DNA of 35,452 nt, taken from the IMG/VR virus record IMGVR_UViG_2563366975_000004. One strand, given 5' to 3'. Positions within the stretch are counted from its first letter, which is position 1. Every line of letters starts with the position of its first letter. The notes under the pieces were generated by a model. That model was not told where the DNA came from. It did no database searches and saw only the letters and a list, made by a program, of their open reading frames with translations. This stretch comes from a virus. Lineage: Duplodnaviria; Heunggongvirae; Uroviricota; Caudoviricetes. The position numbers were made by a program, and so were the translations under genes. Positions 1,422 to 14,901 of the stretch are shown here, piece after piece.

Positions 1422-3893
1422 TTAAAAATCAGCCTGATTTGGGATCAGTTTTTGCCAGATAGCTGAAACGTATTTTGCCTGGTAACGGGCGTCATCAAGT
1501 GCATTATGGCGCTCACCTTCGAATGGAATAGCCGTTCTGGCATCGAAGTCTATGGCTTTCCCCAGCTCAACGATTGTGCGTACATCGCGATCGTTGTAGT
1601 AACGCCACGGGCAGGGGATCCCCTGCCGTTCGTATGAACGGCGCAAAATCGTGTTGTCGAAGTTGGCTCCATTTCCCCAAACCTGAACAAAAAATTCACC
1701 GGAGTTTTCGTCGATAAATTCCCGCAATTGTAACAGTGCATCATCTAACGGGATTTCATCGGTCATAATGGCAGATTGCGCTTCGCGTGATTGCTTAAGC
1801 CACCATTTAATGGTGTCCCGATCAATGACTCCGCCAGCAGTTTCCAGATCGATAGTCTTACTAAATTCCGGTCCCATATCTCCGGTTTGCGGATCGAAAA
1901 ATATTGCACCTATTGAGATGATCGGGGCATCAGGATTTTTTCCCATGGTTTCAAGGTCGATCATTAGATGGTCACACGTCCTGCTGGTGGATGTGATAAC
2001 GTGATGACCGTTCACCGTAATTAAGGGATCTGCCGTCTCGCCAGTTTCACTATCGCTGGCGTGGTCCTGAGCGCTGCCAGCATTCTCCTTGTGTGGATGT
2101 TCAGCGCCTTCCATTTTCTCCGAATCGTCTTCCTGAACTTCAACCTGGTTCTTGTCATCGAATGTTTCCTGGTATGTTGCGTCGCCCATCACCGCACCAC
2201 ATTCAGGGCAGTTGCCGCCGCCGGTCTGACCGTAGGCGGTGCAGATTTTTTCCGCTTCCTGTTGCGCTACTGGCTCAGGTTGTTTCGTTTCTGGCTCGTT
2301 TTGTAACGCATTTGGGCTGTTTTGTTCCGCTTTCTGGTCGTTCTGTTCCGTTTCTTGCTGGTTCTGGTTCACAGAATCGCGGGTCTGGTTCCCCTTAACC
2401 CATTTCGGATCATTCGGGTCGCTAATCCCTTCAACAAATTCACCACGTGATACAGCAAGCAACTGATCGGCGTCAGGCTGGCTGATATTGGCTGCCTGCA
2501 TAATTTTGTTTACTTCGTCAGCGGTAACTTTTACTGACCCTGGTTGTGCGGTCGTGTCAGATGCACCAGTATTTTGTTGTGAACCTGAGTATGTACCGTT
2601 TTTGCGGGCGAAATATTCTTCTTTCGTGATTTCAGTAGCCCCAGCAGACAGCGCCTTATCCAGACCAGAAAGTTTGTTTGCGCGACCGTATTTTTCGCCA
2701 TCCTTGTCGGTGAAGAGGAAGTAGAACGGCCCCTCACGCTCTACAGATGGTTCGACTTCCACTTTGCATTCAGTTTTTTCGTTGCCCGGAATTGCCGTTT
2801 CCACTGCATCAGTTTCTGGTACTGGCGACGAGAGAGTATCAGTTGCGCTCTGATTTGTTCCTTCATCTTCAAACACGCCCTTTGTAGTCAGGTATTCAGT
2901 AATGTATTTGTTCAGTGCCACAGGGTCTTTGTGAATGTCGATCGGACGTTCACGGACAAGGCCAAAAATAGTCTGGCGGTCGTAGCGAAGGGCATCAGGC
3001 TGTTTGCGCATTGATGCCGAGATACGCTTCCAGTCTTCGCGGTCGTTGTCGATAACTTCATTTTTTGCCCAGCGATGGATGCTGCCGTCAATGTTTCCGG
3101 CATCCACATCACCAGGCCAGAGAGCGTAGGCCAGTTCGTCATCCAGTGTTTTCCATGTCTGCTTGTATTCGCGATGAATGGCAGCAATGACCGGGTTGAT
3201 TTTTCCTGTTGAATTTTCAGTGTGCTGTTGATTGGCTCTGGCGCGGGCGAGATCAACAACAGACGTGTATTTTCCGGCTTCCTTGCGTTCACCTTCGCGA
3301 CGTTTTTTCCAGATGCGCATCTCTGCCTGAATTTCGGGCCATTTGGCACCAGGCTTACATTTATGCTTAACCCACCCGATGGCATGCAGCTTAAGCTCCG
3401 GATACATGGCGTTAACTTCTGGCATTTTCATCAACGCTTCAACGATATGTCCGTCGAATGTTGCCATGTCTTCCTGCAACAGTTCCTGCGCGCTAATCAC
3501 CATATCAACGGTGATGTTTTCACATGTGTCGAACTTAACCATGACAGCGTTCTGTACTTCAGGGGCCAGCTTGTCAAAAGTGACGTTCATCGGATCTGAT
3601 TCAGTCTCAACCGGGACAAAGGAAGCAGACGCCTCATCCCAGCGGTTTTCCTGCATATATTCAGCATCCCAGGAATCTAGGGCAGGGCGGGGTATACCGG
3701 GTTTATCCTCGCAGACAAGAAATTTATAAGCGCAGTCCTGAGCAGCCGGATAATGTTCCAGGAATTGCCAGTGAAATTTTGCGCGGGCGCGACGTTCATC
3801 ACCGGCTTCAATGGCAGTGGCTACAGCGACGGCACCTTCTTCCTTTATTGCCTGTTCGTCCGGAATGGCGGCGCAAATAAAGACTTTACTCAT
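1422..3893 (-). CDS. Phage exonuclease with C-terminal DnaQ-like (DEDD) 3'-5' exonuclease domain (823 aa)
   Basis: Long ORF; C-terminus contains MIDLETMG...GNGANFD...HNALDDA motifs resembling DEDDh exonucleases; long acidic low-complexity linker; early-left position next to xis/int. Confidence 0.65.
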   Translation of the reverse strand: MSKVFICAAIPDEQAIKEEGAVAVATAIEAGDERRARAKFHWQFLEHYPAAQDCAYKFLVCEDKPGIPRPALDSWDAEYMQENRWDEASASFVPVETESDPMNVTFDKLAPEVQNAVMVKFDTCENITVDMVISAQELLQEDMATFDGHIVEALMKMPEVNAMYPELKLHAIGWVKHKCKPGAKWPEIQAEMRIWKKRREGERKEAGKYTSVVDLARARANQQHTENSTGKINPVIAAIHREYKQTWKTLDDELAYALWPGDVDAGNIDGSIHRWAKNEVIDNDREDWKRISASMRKQPDALRYDRQTIFGLVRERPIDIHKDPVALNKYITEYLTTKGVFEDEGTNQSATDTLSSPVPETDAVETAIPGNEKTECKVEVEPSVEREGPFYFLFTDKDGEKYGRANKLSGLDKALSAGATEITKEEYFARKNGTYSGSQQNTGASDTTAQPGSVKVTADEVNKIMQAANISQPDADQLLAVSRGEFVEGISDPNDPKWVKGNQTRDSVNQNQQETEQNDQKAEQNSPNALQNEPETKQPEPVAQQEAEKICTAYGQTGGGNCPECGAVMGDATYQETFDDKNQVEVQEDDSEKMEGAEHPHKENAGSAQDHASDSETGETADPLITVNGHHVITSTSRTCDHLMIDLETMGKNPDAPIISIGAIFFDPQTGDMGPEFSKTIDLETAGGVIDRDTIKWWLKQSREAQSAIMTDEIPLDDALLQLREFIDENSGEFFVQVWGNGANFDNTILRRSYERQGIPCPWRYYNDRDVRTIVELGKAIDFDARTAIPFEGERHNALDDARYQAKYVSAIWQKLIPNQADF

Positions 3894-3972: not shown

Positions 3973-4182
3973 TTACGGCGCTGTTTTTAATCCTGCCGGG
4001 ATTTCGTTATTGTCCATGTGAATAACTTTATCGACCGGATAACAGTTGCCGGGAATTTTCTGTTCCGCTGCGGCAGCCATGCATTCTTTCATTGAGTTGT
4101 ACATGCCGGTGATTGCATCAAGCGACTCACCAGTATTGAGATGTACAGTCAAAATGAGTACGAATAATGTGTTCATCGCCAC
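3973..4182 (-). CDS. Small membrane/secreted protein, YdfD-like by position (69 aa)
   Basis: N-terminal hydrophobic segment MAMNTLFVLILTVHL; lies immediately downstream of the dicB-like gene as ydfD does in Qin. Confidence 0.45.
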   Translation of the reverse strand: MAMNTLFVLILTVHLNTGESLDAITGMYNSMKECMAAAAEQKIPGNCYPVDKVIHMDNNEIPAGLKTAP

Positions 4183-4361
4183 TCTCCGAAAATACCGAGT
4201 TTAAGAAGGGCAATTCTGGAGAGTATGGAATTGTCATTCAGCAGGTAGGGTTCATATTTTCTCATATTGATTGCATCCTCGGTGAAATCCCTGTTACTGA
4301 GCAGAACACCAATATTAAAGCACCCGTCAGACGTATTAACGTTTGGTAGTGACGTTTCCAT
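4173..4361 (-). CDS. dicB: Cell-division inhibitor DicB-like protein (62 aa)
   Basis: 62-aa product with recalled DicB-like motifs (LPNVNTS.GCF.IGV..SN..FTEDAIN.RK); located downstream of a DicF sRNA in the same orientation. Confidence 0.7.
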   Translation of the reverse strand: METSLPNVNTSDGCFNIGVLLSNRDFTEDAINMRKYEPYLLNDNSILSRIALLKLGIFGEWR

Positions 4362-4371
4362 TATCGCGTCC

Positions 4372-4929
4372 TCAACAATGAATTTTTAGCAATTGCTCCA
4401 CAGTCATATTTTTAATTGCGCTCCGGTTTACAAGAGTCCATCCTTGTTTCTCCAGATAAAACCGGAAGGTATCCAGGGTGCAGACCATTGCGTCGTCAGG
4501 AACGGTTTCAGTGAATTTGATATTGCCGTGTTCGTCGAGACGGATAACCAGGGTGCGTCCGTCCCCGTGAATCATTTTGTCGGGAGACGGGGCGTTATTC
4601 TGGCGCAGTTCTGCTTCCATGCGGTCGAACTCAGCAATGTATGCCTCTTTAAATGCAGCGGCTTTTTTGCCAGTGAAGCCCATCACCAGGAAAACGAAGC
4701 CGTTTTTGGTGATTTGGTACATTGGGAGTTTGCGCCCGGTTGAGTCGGTGTATTCGCTTGACACAAAATTGTGCTCAGTGAATTTTGCTGAACAGTCCAG
4801 ATTGCGAATTTTATCCAACACTCGTTCGTGGCGTTTGCCAAAGAACTCGGCGATCGCAACAGACGTAGTGACAGCGCGACCATTTTCGATGGTTACGTCA
4901 GGGTGAGAAAGGGTAAGGATAGTAGCCAT
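4372..4929 (-). CDS. Phage regulatory protein Rha family (about 186 aa, start at internal ATG)
   Basis: Rha-domain motif VTTSVAIAEFFGKRHERVLDKIRNL near N-terminus; GGAGG 8 nt upstream of the ATG at 4929; the 284-aa track ORF extends upstream across an intrinsic terminator so I prefer the internal start. Confidence 0.6.
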   Translation of the reverse strand: MATILTLSHPDVTIENGRAVTTSVAIAEFFGKRHERVLDKIRNLDCSAKFTEHNFVSSEYTDSTGRKLPMYQITKNGFVFLVMGFTGKKAAAFKEAYIAEFDRMEAELRQNNAPSPDKMIHGDGRTLVIRLDEHGNIKFTETVPDDAMVCTLDTFRFYLEKQGWTLVNRSAIKNMTVEQLLKIHC

Positions 4930-5096
4930 GATGGCAGCCTCCGCGATGAATTTGATTAACTCACCACCGAGGTTTTCCACGACCATAAGGGTGGTGAGAC
5001 GTACAGGGGTGGAAATACCGGTCATCACGGAACCCGGCCAGCCTTGCGGCTGCCCTGCACGCCCCACCATAATGCGAATGTGGCTGTGCTTAACGC

Positions 5097-5121
5097 ATAA
5101 AAAAACCGCCTGAGCGCGGTT
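5097..5121 (-). terminator. Rho-independent terminator (minus strand)
   Basis: Inverted repeat aaccgc/gcggtt with 6-nt loop followed on the minus strand by a run of 7 T. Confidence 0.5.
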
Positions 5122-5414
5122 ATGCGCCGTGAATGATTTCGGGTTTCCACGCCCGGCACCCGTTTTATGAGGTGCAGGTGCACTATAATTCCACCCGTTC
5201 TGGTTTTCAATAGCTACATTCAACATTTTCTCTACCTTTCATCACCGAAGTGAACTTTGTTGATGCGGTGCCTGGTGCCTCCAGGTGACGTTAACCAGTT
5301 AACAATTAACGTCGGATACAGAGCATTCCCGTTACGCCCGTAAAAGACCGCTTGTTTTAACTGTTCCGCGTGCGCTGAGCCGCATTCACCGCATCACAAA
5401 ATTCACTTTAAAAA

Positions 5415-5467
5415 GGGCGGCAGAGCAGTCACGGAGTAGAACTGATACCGCCAAAAGTCACCAGAAA
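5415..5467 (-). ncRNA. dicF: DicF small RNA (53 nt)
   Basis: Minus-strand sequence TTTCTGGTGACTTTTGGCGGTATCAGTTCTACTCCGTGACTGCTCTGCCGCCC followed by TTTTT; matches my recollection of E. coli DicF apart from about 2 substitutions. Confidence 0.75.
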
Positions 5468-5802
5468 ATTGATAACAGAGGGCGTTGCAGCGGAGTTGTC
5501 ACTTAAGCGTATGGTCAACCTGACAACCCGGTGTCCTCAACGGGGGAAGGAATAACCCCGCCATACTTACCGCCGCGCCATTTCGCGGATTGCCACAACC
5601 GGAAGCGCACGGTCGACGAAAATTTAACGACAGGCTATCTATGAACCAGCTACCTCACCGAGCGCTTTCGCGTTATGGTCTGACTTTTCAGGGAAATATC
5701 CTTTCAGTAAACTGTCAGTGCCGGATGCTCACCCGTGTCCGGCGCACGCACTCCACCTCACCCGTGGAGAACTCCTTAATCACCAACCCTCAGGAGGGTG
5801 AA

Positions 5803-6078
5803 ATGTCGACTGAAAATGATGAAATCATTAACTCCCTGATACGCCAGATTAATAATTTTGATAAAGCATTGCAGCATGCTGCGGCGCGTAGTGATATAAC
5901 TCTTTTAGCAATTTCATTTCTTGCATCTGTTATGGATAAAAATGAAGTCGTACGACAGAGTCTTGTTGATTATATCGACTCGCTTCAACCCGGCACTTTC
6001 AATCATGAGAGCTTCAATCATGAGAAAGAGCATGTTAAGTCTGTAATTAATTCTCTTATTTTGAATCAAAAGAATTAA
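5803..6078 (+). CDS. Hypothetical protein (91 aa), opposite orientation to the surrounding operon
   Basis: Internal ATG preceded by AGGAGGGTG-aa RBS; AT-rich; contains a tandem 12-bp repeat encoding FNHESFNHE; the 162-aa track ORF upstream extension lacks an RBS. Confidence 0.5.
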   Translation: MSTENDEIINSLIRQINNFDKALQHAAARSDITLLAISFLASVMDKNEVVRQSLVDYIDSLQPGTFNHESFNHEKEHVKSVINSLILNQKN

Positions 6079-6376
6079 TGCTTTTTGTTGCAAAGTAATT
6101 TTCAAGGGGTTCTATTCGAATCCCTTTCTTTTTCATTAACAAGCCAAACCCCTTATCAATGATGTCCATTAGATCCAGGAAGTATTTTTCATGTAAATCC
6201 TGGTTATCAGAGAGCTGCTTCTCTTCGTACAGACCGATAAAGGCACGACGCACGTTACCGGATATAGTATCGATGGTTTCTTTTTCTACGGTACTCAGGT
6301 CAAGAGTCGCCAGTTGGGAACGAACTATATTCGCTGCCATTTCCTGGAATGGCATTGGTAAATCTTTAAATTCCAT
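6056..6376 (-). CDS. Hypothetical protein (106 aa)
   Basis: ORF with GAGG RBS 7 nt upstream of ATG; converges on and overlaps the 3' end of the 5803..6078 gene by 23 nt. Confidence 0.5.
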   Translation of the reverse strand: MEFKDLPMPFQEMAANIVRSQLATLDLSTVEKETIDTISGNVRRAFIGLYEEKQLSDNQDLHEKYFLDLMDIIDKGFGLLMKKKGIRIEPLENYFATKSINSFDSK

Positions 6377-6398
6377 TATTAGCCTCGTTGGTTAGCTA

Positions 6399-6617
6399 TT
6401 AACGTGGGTATGTAACCATTCTGGCAATGCTTAATGCCGCTGCTTTTTCCAGCCTGGTGATATCCTGCTCCAGAGCGGACAGATTTTCAGCCTGCTTAGT
6501 CCTGGCTTCATTGGCCCATTTCAGATCCTGCGCTGCATTAATTTTCTGGCGCATCCACTCATAAAGTTCATCATCGGTATAGTCTGGCGCGATGATGACG
6601 GGTTCTCGTTTCTGCAT
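6399..6617 (-). CDS. YdfC-like small coiled-coil protein (72 aa)
   Basis: 72 aa, same size and relative position as ydfC in the Qin dicB operon. Confidence 0.55.
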   Translation of the reverse strand: MQKREPVIIAPDYTDDELYEWMRQKINAAQDLKWANEARTKQAENLSALEQDITRLEKAAALSIARMVTYPR

Positions 6618-6646
6618 ACTGATTCCTCGCGGTGCTGTTTCGCTTA

Positions 6647-6775
6647 TCAGCCGTTAGATTTTGCCGAACTGGAAAGCACCTGTTTAAATTCGTTGAAGCT
6701 GTGAGCTTCTTCGCCTTCGGCAAGGCCTTCGAAGTATTCTTCGTAAGCCTTTTCCATGATTGTGTCAAAATCCAT
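6647..6775 (-). CDS. YdfB-like small protein (42 aa; not in ORF track)
   Basis: Hand translation MDFDTIMEKAYEEYFEGLAEGEEAHSFNEFKQVLSSSAKSNG with double stop; GGTGAG RBS; size and position match ydfB. Confidence 0.5.
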   Translation of the reverse strand: MDFDTIMEKAYEEYFEGLAEGEEAHSFNEFKQVLSSSAKSNG

Positions 6776-6776
6776 A

Positions 6777-6932
6777 TCACTCACCTGAGTTTCTTTCCAG
6801 CCAGCGACGGGCACCATTTTCGGTTTTAAACGTTTTGCTTTTGGTATACGTCATTGCGGTGAACGTACCGTCCTGGTTGGGGAACACGCCACATACCAGA
6901 GATTCGCTGTTGCCAAGATCGATAGTATCCAT
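6777..6932 (-). CDS. YdfA-like small protein (51 aa from internal ATG)
   Basis: MDTIDLGNSESLVCGVFPNQDGTFTAMTYTKSKTFKTENGARRWLERNSGE; GAGG 5 nt upstream of ATG; stop abuts ydfB-like start. Confidence 0.55.
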   Translation of the reverse strand: MDTIDLGNSESLVCGVFPNQDGTFTAMTYTKSKTFKTENGARRWLERNSGE

Positions 6933-7117
6933 GCTGACCTCATTTCCCCTTAACGCCGGGGTAGCGGAACTAAAAAACTGCTGCGCTGTTATATAAAGTG
7001 TTCCCGCCGTCATGTTCATACGCCTCGGGCTGGCTACTTAACCCCTGACCACTGCCGGGTAACTCGAAGTATTGCCTGGCGTTCTGTGGGGCGGGGTGGG
7101 TTGGTATGAAAAGAAGG

Positions 7118-7155
7118 ATACCCATAGGTATTTAAAAAGTAAATACCCATGGGTA
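7118..7155. promoter_or_regulatory. Left-operator-like palindromic sites (2 copies) beside the repressor gene
   Basis: ATACCCATAGGTAT and the perfect palindrome TACCCATGGGTA; share ACC-N-GGTA half-sites with the three sites between repressor and cro-like genes. Confidence 0.45.
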
Positions 7156-7197: not shown

Positions 7198-7617
7198 CTA
7201 TGATGCGTTTTGTGCTTTCTTTTTACGGATTTCTTCGTAGATCATATTGTAATACTGTTTTTTCTCTTCAAGAGTTTTTAATAATTTATCCGCTTCACTT
7301 TCTGGCAGTTCGTCTAAGAGATCTAAAAAAATACGTTGTCGTGGCGTTAGAACCCTTGTTTCATAACTGGAGGCTGTGTTCGTTGATGATGAAACGATAC
7401 CATCCATCCATCCCCGGGGTAACCCAAAGGACTCTTCGATAATCTCCACCATATCATCAGCGATCCGTTTTTTTCCCTTTTTCCCCTCTGGGTACAACAT
7501 TCTTGATACATAAGAAGGCTCGCGCCCGATCTTTCTGGCCACGTTAACCGCTTTACCATCGCATTTCTCATCACGAATTTTGATGAGTTGCTGTCGTCTA
7601 AATTCATATTTGTCCAT
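7198..7617 (-). CDS. Prophage immunity repressor (CI/DicA functional analogue), HTH protein (139 aa)
   Basis: HTH-like segment GKAVNVARKIGREPSYVSRM; divergent from a Cro-like gene with repeated operator sites in the intergenic region. Confidence 0.7.
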   Translation of the reverse strand: MDKYEFRRQQLIKIRDEKCDGKAVNVARKIGREPSYVSRMLYPEGKKGKKRIADDMVEIIEESFGLPRGWMDGIVSSSTNTASSYETRVLTPRQRIFLDLLDELPESEADKLLKTLEEKKQYYNMIYEEIRKKKAQNAS

Positions 7618-14574: not shown

Positions 14575-14745
14575 GCGGGTGCTTGAGGCTATCTGTCTCA
14601 GGCATGAACACCAAAAGGCAGATAGAGAAAAGCCCCAGTTAACATTACGCGTCCTGCAAGACGCTTAACATTAATCTGAGGCCATATCTATGCGACACAT
14701 AGAGATTAGCCTCTTACGGACCGAAAGGTCAAGGAGAAGCAGGCT
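14575..14745 (+). promoter_or_regulatory. hok mRNA leader with mok-like upstream reading frame
   Basis: Leader segments gcttgaggctatctgtctcagg and tagcctcttacgg...caaggagaagcaggctATG resemble the recalled R1 hok/sok leader. Confidence 0.45.
14630..14700 (-). ncRNA. Expected Sok-like antisense RNA (position approximate)
   Basis: Inferred from hok/sok locus architecture only; antisense to the mok start region; no independent sequence signature identified. Confidence 0.25.
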
Positions 14746-14901
14746 ATGAAGCAGCAAAAGGCGATGTTAATCGCCCTGATCGTCATCTGTTTAACCGTCA
14801 TAGTGACGGCACTGGTAACGAGGAAAGACCTCTGCGAGGTACGAATCCGAACCGGCCAGACGGAGGTCGCTGTCTTCACAGCTTACGAACCTGAGGAGTA
14901 A
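14746..14901 (+). CDS. hok: Hok/Gef-family type I toxin (51 aa; not in ORF track)
   Basis: MKQQKAMLIALIVICLTVIVTALVTRKDLCEVRIRTGQTEVAVFTAYEPEE closely matches the Hok/Gef consensus as I recall it; AAGGAG RBS. Confidence 0.8.
   Translation: MKQQKAMLIALIVICLTVIVTALVTRKDLCEVRIRTGQTEVAVFTAYEPEE

Follow-up and report, generated by a model that had tools for sequence, protein, structure and literature searches.

A polymorphic slot for small antisense genes in the dicF-dicB operon of Escherichia coli prophages

A small gene nested antisense in the dicBp operon

The window analyzed here is a stretch of 35,452 nucleotides (nt) from IMG/VR record IMGVR_UViG_2563366975_000004 (Caudoviricetes), and the element in question is a plus-strand gene for a protein of 91 amino acids (aa) located between ydfC and the small RNA (sRNA) DicF. 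This gene is probably an accessory gene that occupies a polymorphic slot nested antisense in the early-left (dicBp) operon and is expressed reciprocally to it. The carrier is an Escherichia coli lambdoid prophage of the DicF/DicB type. Positions 5300–7100 of the window are 100% identical to six complete E. coli chromosomes (Ecol_316 and five others), and 4,606 of 5,426 complete E. coli genomes match the window region with a DicF/DicB-type prophage. In the Qin prophage of K-12, ydfABC-dicF-dicB form one transcript from dicBp. DicF and DicB are toxic and are produced solely via read-through from dicBp (PMC10448788). An operon that is found in most E. coli and has host-toxic products contains a defined, highly polymorphic antisense slot. 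The following elements are needed for the argument:

5803–6078, plus strand: 91-aa cargo gene, type T3, with an ATG start and a GC content of 0.35 (WP_000102678.1, hypothetical protein in RefSeq/PGAP)
5789–5802, plus strand: Shine-Dalgarno (SD) block CTCAGGAGGGTGAA, common to five unrelated cargo open reading frames (ORFs) and not present in Qin and Tritos (alignments)
5998–6025, plus strand: direct repeat, two copies of TTCAATCATGAGA, encoding FNHES-FNHE
6056–6376, minus strand: 106-aa early-left operon gene of the MEFKDLP family, with an ATG start (WP_001586951.1, hypothetical protein in RefSeq/PGAP)
6056–6078: overlap of the two 3′ ends, 23 nt
5789–6378: 590-bp module with both coding sequences; K-12 Qin and phage Tritos lack it and have a clean junction instead (BLAST and alignments)
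6399–6617, minus strand: ydfC, the operon gene directly upstream of the 106-aa gene (PGAP annotation; phrog_1744)
5467–5788, minus strand: DicF precursor leader, conserved in 163 loci; the plus gene has the antisense strand of this leader as its 5′ platform
5415–5466, minus strand: DicF sRNA (Rfam RF00039, 71.5 bits against a gathering score of 48)

An initial annotation, made from the letters of the window, had described a convergent gene pair at this place, and its anatomy was recovered. The 91-aa plus-strand ORF lies between ydfC and DicF at 5803–6078 and runs against the early-left operon. The converging 106-aa ORF occupies 6056–6376 on the minus strand, with the predicted 23-nt overlap at 6056–6078. 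Also the strong ribosome-binding site and the AT-rich composition were found: AGGAGG is located at 5792–5797, 5 nt before the plus ATG, and the GC content is 0.31–0.39 across 5775–6149 compared with ~0.50 in the flanks. The reported 12-bp tandem repeat does encode FNHES-FNHE, but it consists of two identical 13-nt copies (5998–6010 and 6013–6025) with a period of 15 nt and is not a strict 12-bp tandem. It was not reported by Tandem Repeats Finder. The copy number of the FNHES repeat is one in P0004/P0005, two in most sequences and three in L019, and the copies are always in frame. The plus gene thus sits between the minus-strand genes ydfA-ydfB-ydfC-106 aa and dicF-dicB, which is the layout of a noncontiguous operon.

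Both coding sequences are absent from close relatives

Comparison with Qin and other DicB-type prophages bore out the claim that the pair is inserted in the operon. Relative to Qin and Tritos, both genes form an insertion at the junction of ydfC and the dicF leader. In these relatives ydfC abuts the DicF leader directly, and both edges of the indel are close to a start codon, 14 nt ahead of the plus ATG and 2 nt ahead of the minus ATG. The whole 590-bp segment with the 91-aa gene occurs in ~198 of the 5,426 complete E. coli genomes. A further group, the class c prophages, carries a 124-aa minus gene and no cargo. The locus therefore shows two features of a moron, namely presence or absence at the same site in close relatives and a base composition that deviates from the flanks. 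The module-free junction (Tritos, L002 ~2970–3000; K-12, L310 ~2040–2075) has a short inverted repeat, ACCAAC...GTTGGT, right after the ydfC stop, and the module is located between the two arms of this repeat.

At least 10 alternative cargos share one translation-initiation platform

A scan of IMG/VR with CCAACCCTCAGGAGGGTGA yielded at least 120 loci. Prophages with a different plus ORF have, nucleotide for nucleotide, the same leader ahead of it, CTCAGGAGGGTGAAATG included. Five cargo types were distinguished:

T1: cargo of 77 aa (phrog_10348); minus gene of 135 aa; 3′ overlap of 23 nt
T2: cargo of 92 aa (phrog_18692); minus gene of 133 aa; 3′ overlap of 41 nt
T3 (window): cargo of 91 aa; minus gene of 106 or 109 aa; 3′ overlap of 23 or 32 nt
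T4: cargo of 73 aa (phrog_7249); minus gene of 124 aa; 3′ overlap of 11 nt
T5: cargo of 63 aa (phrog_2605); minus gene of 201 aa; 3′ overlap of 23 nt

All five cargos are AT-rich (GC 0.35–0.43), and in the complete loci among the matches listed each cargo type always goes with a single form of the minus gene. The counts in the 5,426 complete E. coli genomes were 650 for T1, ~198 for T3, 127 for T2 and 88 for T4. We considered T4 and T3 as homologues and rejected this, as no homology between the 73-aa and the 91-aa protein was detectable.

A second SD allele, AATGGAGGATAAAATG, was found by a scan anchored further back in the leader. The SD-B loci (L213, L216, L218, L233, L268 and L282 of IMG/VR; first ~350 nt after the anchor GTAAACTGTCAGTGCCGGAT) contain cargos of 69 aa, of 80 and 61 aa (zinc-ribbon-like), of 64 aa and of 94 aa (GhoS-like). 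In complete loci, these cargos converge on MEFK(D/E)LP genes of 212, 186, 129 and 112 aa with other C-termini. The 94-aa cargo (L268), which reaches the Pfam cut-off for the type V antitoxin GhoS (21.2 bits against 21), is an exception, having beside it only a degenerate remnant of the minus gene. Among 89 newly fetched leader-anchored loci, ~45 were Qin/Tritos-like without the module and ~20 had the 124-aa gene and no cargo. By comparison of the loci, the slot is polymorphic, with at least 10 alternative small cargos behind two leader/SD alleles, and it is empty in some prophages. This evolutionary pattern is shown here, as is the anatomy of the locus.

The cargo appears to be largely mobile on its own, since three comparisons separate it from its neighbors. 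The same minus aa 1–104 accompany T3, T4 or no cargo at all, T1 and T5 share minus aa 1–125, and between two T3 alleles the cargo coding sequence is only 83.8% identical, compared with 96% for the leader and the minus gene. Together with the alternative ORFs in the slot, the latter values agree with the suggested independent acquisition of the plus gene.

In E. coli 1303 (L006, 918–1364), a plus-strand gene for a 148-aa protein with two predicted transmembrane (TM) helices (phrog_6315) lies at another site of the DicF leader. Its insertion point is between window positions ~5616 and 5733, and it gave a weak PADLOC match to RTasSLATT (E = 0.002).

The 91-codon frame encodes a protein

A second lineage of T3 alleles (L008 and L010; 76–79% aa identity) differs from the window gene at 43 of 276 nt, with 19 aa changes. 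Measured against the L008-type allele, the ratio of nonsynonymous to synonymous substitution rates (dN/dS) is 0.30 for the annotated frame, the lowest of the six frames. In a permutation with 20,000 random redistributions of the substitutions, 19 or fewer aa changes were obtained in 0.02% (p = 0.0002). The frame stayed open in 31% of the redistributions, and openness alone is thus uninformative. In the fetched loci, all 48 full-length copies of the gene were intact, and indels were only of 3, 15 or 27 nt. Because of the few aa changes, the lowest dN/dS, the intact copies and the in-frame indels, the 91-aa ORF is by these measures a genuine protein-coding gene under purifying selection. The encoded protein is acidic and predicted to be helical.

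Upstream of the SD-proximal ATG the plus frame is open (5590–5802 and 5642–5802), and many database entries are N-terminally extended forms of 105–145 aa (for example P0002 with 481 member sequences). We rejected an extended ORF of 145 or 162 aa as the true product. The leader frame shifts for T1 (−1 base) and for T5 (+4 bases), and PGAP uses the SD-proximal ATG. Since the frame of this leader differs when the cargo is T1 or T5, the extended start in these entries is probably a wrong start call. The extended (145-aa) database annotation is hereby corrected.

In some lineages, IS1 interrupts the 91-aa gene or the adjacent minus gene (P0013; E. coli chromosomes H69 and H82). The C-terminal end of P0013 (58 member sequences) we take to be translated IS1 end sequence. 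The 91-aa gene is therefore dispensable.

One relative of the protein was found in the slot itself. T3 and the 92-aa T2 protein share 28% identity over 86 aa (BLASTP, E = 9e-6), hmmscan placed residues 9–88 on phrog_18692, a family of 92-aa phage proteins (E = 0.022), and an exhaustive profile search with the 91-aa protein retrieved the 92-aa P0139 (E = 1.1e-4). These weak but consistent matches suggest that the T3 protein is a remote homologue of T2/phrog_18692, an occupant of the same slot.

The convergent minus-strand gene belongs to the operon

The 106-aa gene is oriented with the operon and starts 22 nt past the ydfC stop. Its product matches phrog_6937 (E = 1.2e-68) with residues 1–106 of the 124-position profile, and its N-terminal 55–66 aa are common to phrog_1363, phrog_2151 and phrog_9419. 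Among 234 homologues most have 124 aa. The 124-aa versions in L004–L006 are equaled by the 106-aa form over aa 1–104, after which the latter ends early (alignment A4). In sister T3 alleles the minus gene has 109 aa and the overlap is 32 nt; a single base change causes Ile88Val in the plus protein and turns the minus stop into Gln. Compared in this way, the 106-aa form reads as a 3′-truncated allele of the 124-aa gene whose last ~18 codons were lost to the cassette junction. Most simply, the 3′ end of the minus gene would have been remodelled upon arrival of the plus gene, with the 23-nt overlap as a by-product of the junction.

The minus gene occurs in ~1,357 of the 5,426 complete E. coli genomes, and most of these matches cover only window positions 6060–6376 and represent the 124-aa protein. 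Such loci can carry another plus-strand cargo (T4 in L004) or none (L005). The term moron pair in the initial annotation thus holds for one partner. The plus gene is exchanged independently, but the minus gene is co-oriented with the operon, belongs to the widespread phrog_6937 family and mostly occurs without the 91-aa gene. It is an ordinary member of the operon and not a moron.

A reciprocal mode of expression is proposed

On the left, the slot would be anchored by the antisense strand of the DicF leader, which ends in the fixed SD and ATG, and on the right by the N-terminal ~55 aa of the co-oriented MEFKDLP operon gene. Recombination between these anchors would exchange the cargo coding sequence plus a variable 3′ stretch of the minus gene, and would thereby account for the 106-aa truncation of the 124-aa form and for the overlapping 3′ ends. 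As long as the repressor holds the operon off, a separate promoter in the leader would drive the cargo. After induction, convergent early-left transcription would silence the cargo. The cargo and the operon would then be expressed in mutual exclusion, as a noncontiguous operon comparable to sieB in lambda and Rac and to ith/tha in phage 80alpha. Promoter, timing and activity of the plus gene are what we infer from this arrangement. By analogy, our best guess for the 91-aa protein is a function in the lysogenic phase, for example exclusion of other phages or neutralization of a prophage product. Damping of leaky read-through into dicF/dicB may be a side effect.

Two candidate signals for a plus-strand transcript were identified:

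5685–5713, plus strand: candidate sigma-70 promoter (TTTTCA, 17-nt spacer, TAAACT); score of 9.5 with an in-house position weight matrix, the best in 5250–5830
6104–6136, plus strand: terminator-like hairpin with a T-run, 26 nt past the 91-aa stop and inside the 106-aa coding sequence; stem of −11.6 kcal/mol

With the in-house matrix, a score of 8 or more is reached by ~1.5 sites per kb of a single strand. The candidate promoter was not listed by a separate consensus scan. Conservation per column of the leader fails to single out the promoter hexamers, since the leader is conserved throughout as a component of the DicF precursor. The hairpin would end a plus transcript of ~400 nt. The 116-nt 5′ region of the plus strand folds at −39.5 kcal/mol (z = −3.6), with the SD partly paired. 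No intrinsic terminator was predicted on the minus strand within the insert; therefore, transcription could still read through to dicF. A literature search found no study of antisense transcription in the ydfC-dicF spacer.

The preference for a lysogeny-phase accessory gene is based on precedents in position and orientation, namely sieB, antisense accessory loci and the noncontiguous operon of 80alpha. The sieB gene of lambda, P22 and Rac is nested antisense in a similar way. In the Rac-like phage vB_EcoS-666R9 it occupies an equivalent place between the repressor and kil, and it overlaps a ydaF-like minus gene by 4 nt from the plus strand. In contrast, the proteins differ. No SieB match was obtained for the window proteins in Pfam, PHROGs, NCBIfam and PADLOC, the SieB ORF in L091 has 203 aa and the 91-aa protein less than half of this, and the 13-residue hydrophobic stretch seen in the latter by eye is not a membrane span. 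An antisense position is characteristic of moron loci, and a gene that opposes a lytic operon is as a rule an accessory locus with expression in the lysogen (PMC7067206). In the Staphylococcus aureus phage 80alpha, an overlapping antisense inhibitor gene and the operon are expressed mutually exclusively (ith/tha; PMC11087260). The likeness is a small opposite-strand gene within a phage operon that overlaps an operon gene. The 80alpha host operon is the cI operon of the lysogenic state, with an antisense gene that acts in the lytic cycle, and the polarity would thus be reversed here; furthermore, the proteins are unrelated and only a 23-nt overlap of coding sequences is seen here.

The locus also resembles the lambdoid morons and the P2/P4 hotspots (PMC9122126) in presence and absence, AT-rich composition, a fixed site with conserved flanks and many alternative cargos; the variety here includes a SLATT-like protein with two TM helices and a GhoS-like protein. 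It differs in that the slot cargos are single tiny ORFs (61–94 aa) behind one nucleotide-identical translation-initiation platform, and in that the slot lies inside the leader of an sRNA precursor. Prophage accessory genes in antisense orientation are a known kind, to which the window adds one more. The polymorphic slot with its fixed platform and at least 10 cargos is the more interesting by-product, as it yields a list of small, apparently selected genes as candidates for phage exclusion, toxin neutralization or control of DicF/DicB.

Several observations weigh against an accessory gene with this mode of expression. The candidate promoter is weak, with 8 of 12 consensus positions, and the conservation of the surrounding leader (163 loci) has other causes and extends to cargo-free prophages. 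The terminator-like hairpin is coding sequence of the minus gene in T4 and is absent downstream of T1, T2 and T5. It was therefore rejected as a cargo-specific terminator; chance or co-option may explain its presence. Part of the SD may be masked by the stable structure predicted for the 5′ region. In our samples, a cargo was never seen without the MEFKDLP gene or its remnant, except for a few loci that lack a callable minus gene; this constant company could point to functional coupling rather than to a shared recombination anchor. Finally, searches of Pfam, NCBIfam, PADLOC, PDB, folds and defence models gave no function for either window protein, and the AlphaFold2 (AF2) model of the 91-aa protein was poor, with a predicted local distance difference test (pLDDT) score of 64, and unfit for a structure search.

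The individual searches were in line with this. For both proteins, the PDB sequence search gave nothing better than E = 0.3. With the AF2 model of the 106-aa protein (pLDDT 71), Foldseek searches against BFVD and PDB returned nothing except a 52-aa homologue of its own N-terminal domain from phage phi191. The exhaustive HMMER search of 1.84 billion representatives gave nine matches, consisting of the own family, the T2-like protein and two long repeat proteins. The latter were judged spurious after inspection of one of them (P0137). The SD-A cargos match no known family (Pfam for T1–T5, PADLOC for T3 only), and no mention of the window proteins or their accessions was found in the literature. 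The homology searches thus placed the minus protein in phrog_6937 and the plus protein remotely next to phrog_18692, and assigned a function to neither.

Alternative explanations

The two genes might form a coupled pair, with the MEFKDLP protein as an early-lytic effector or toxin and the convergent small protein as the matching inhibitor or immunity factor, which the lysogen would produce until convergent transcription shuts it off on induction. We consider this unlikely. Cargo and C-terminus are paired 1:1 in every complete locus among the matches listed, the SD-B cargos included, and there is no cargo in any of the ~45 loci without the MEFKDLP gene. The indel that separates the window from Qin and Tritos comprises just the two coding sequences, as if they acted as one module, one alternative cargo reaches the GhoS antitoxin cut-off, and an antisense inhibitor gene has a precedent (PMC11087260). 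On the other hand, 1:1 linkage is expected without any interaction, because the locus offers just two conserved anchors for homologous recombination. Identical minus aa 1–104 are seen next to T3, next to T4 (unrelated to T3) and in cargo-free loci; the T1 and T5 loci have minus aa 1–125 in common. About 20 of the 89 leader-anchored loci are cargo-free, and most E. coli genomes with the minus gene lack T3. The part that co-varies is mainly a short, poorly conserved tail (AF2 pLDDT <50), as a recombination junction would leave. Within T3 the cargo coding sequence has diverged further than the leader and minus gene around it, and neither window protein resembles a known toxin or antitoxin. The strict co-variation of effector and small gene that characterizes a toxin-immunity pair was not found; pairing is 1:1 at the level of the whole cassette alone.

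Operons of pore-forming colicins and polymorphic toxin-immunity loci offer a model for such a pair, as does Ith/Tha of phage 80alpha. In the colicin-type loci, an induced gene has a constant N-terminal and a variable C-terminal part, and a small convergent immunity gene on the opposite strand, directly downstream, varies along with it. The present locus differs from these, since co-variation is largely confined to the tail, one and the same middle domain is found beside two unrelated cargos or beside none, and there is no homology to toxins or immunity proteins. In its widest form, the idea would make the MEFKDLP gene and the convergent small gene a polymorphic two-gene conflict module of an undescribed type, with a constant N-terminus, variable C-terminal effectors, at least 10 antisense inhibitors or lysogeny-phase exclusion factors and a convergent switch between dicBp and the DicF-leader promoter. 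This wider proposal is equally doubtful.

The initial annotation had suggested that antisense interference might curb read-through into dicF/dicB, a plausible effect. In the strong form of this idea, antisense transcription and not the protein would matter: the plus transcript would collide or pair with the dicBp RNA and limit leaky DicF and DicB, while the ORFs ride along. All DicF prophages, also those without a cargo, have conserved the leader and the candidate promoter, and ~400 nt of the operon RNA would be complementary to the plus transcript. Such a brake would act on toxic products that are made via dicBp read-through alone (PMC10448788), and temperate phages are known to use convergent promoters and antisense RNAs for control (PMC7067206, PMC11087260). 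What makes this explanation improbable is the clear purifying selection at the protein level on the plus frame, which argues that the protein matters, together with the fact that unrelated cargos all retain a strong SD and an intact ORF. In addition, no further promoter was detected in the K-12 operon, although antisense promoters were outside the scope of that study.

That the 91-aa ORF is no gene but a chance open frame antisense to non-coding operon RNA is hardly credible: the family is very small (15 clusters in a search of 5.8 billion proteins, no member found outside the slot, and the nine HMMER matches), no relative was present in 185,579 species-representative genomes, the structure model is of low confidence and 31% of the random substitution trials keep the frame open, but the permutation result, the lowest dN/dS in the annotated frame, the ideal SD, the solely in-frame indels, the remote homologue T2/phrog_18692 in the same slot and the gene call by PGAP all speak for a real gene.

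Operon setting and other features of the prophage

The remaining operon genes and neighboring elements are arranged as follows:

7198–7617, minus strand: DicA/CI-like repressor gene
6777–7019, minus strand: ydfA/DUF1391
6647–6817, minus strand: ydfB
5099–5175, minus strand: isrK-like RNA (67.7 bits), preceding the Rha/Ash-type gene
4987–5074, minus strand: C4-antisense-like RNA (81.9 bits), preceding the Rha/Ash-type gene
4372–5226, minus strand: Rha/Ash-type regulator gene, between DicF and dicB
4173–4361, minus strand: dicB, followed on the same strand by a DUF1482 gene and an exonuclease gene

In Tritos and K-12 Qin, dicB directly follows DicF and there is no intervening Rha/Ash-type gene. 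In AR_0372, the same Rha gene has a partial dicB pseudogene on its upstream side, suggesting an insertion into or beside dicB. The Rha/Ash-type gene with its C4- and isrK-like RNAs resembles the antirepressor modules c4/ant of P1 and IsrK/AnrP of Gifsy-1. A minus-strand hairpin of 16 pairs followed by a T-run is located at 7119–7155, where the early-left operon begins, in the interval from the repressor gene to ydfA. It could be a terminator or a regulatory structure just downstream of the promoter equivalent to dicBp.

Elsewhere in the window, a match to the sok antitoxin RNA (106.7 bits) at 14577–14748 on the plus strand indicates a hok/sok-type module in the prophage, comparable to hokD in Qin. 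Further downstream on the plus strand, at 19277–19433, 19700–19893 and 20169–20357, two tRNA genes are followed by two tandem copies of the sRNA STnc100 (138 and 132.5 bits), presumably a tRNA/sRNA cluster in the late region of the prophage.

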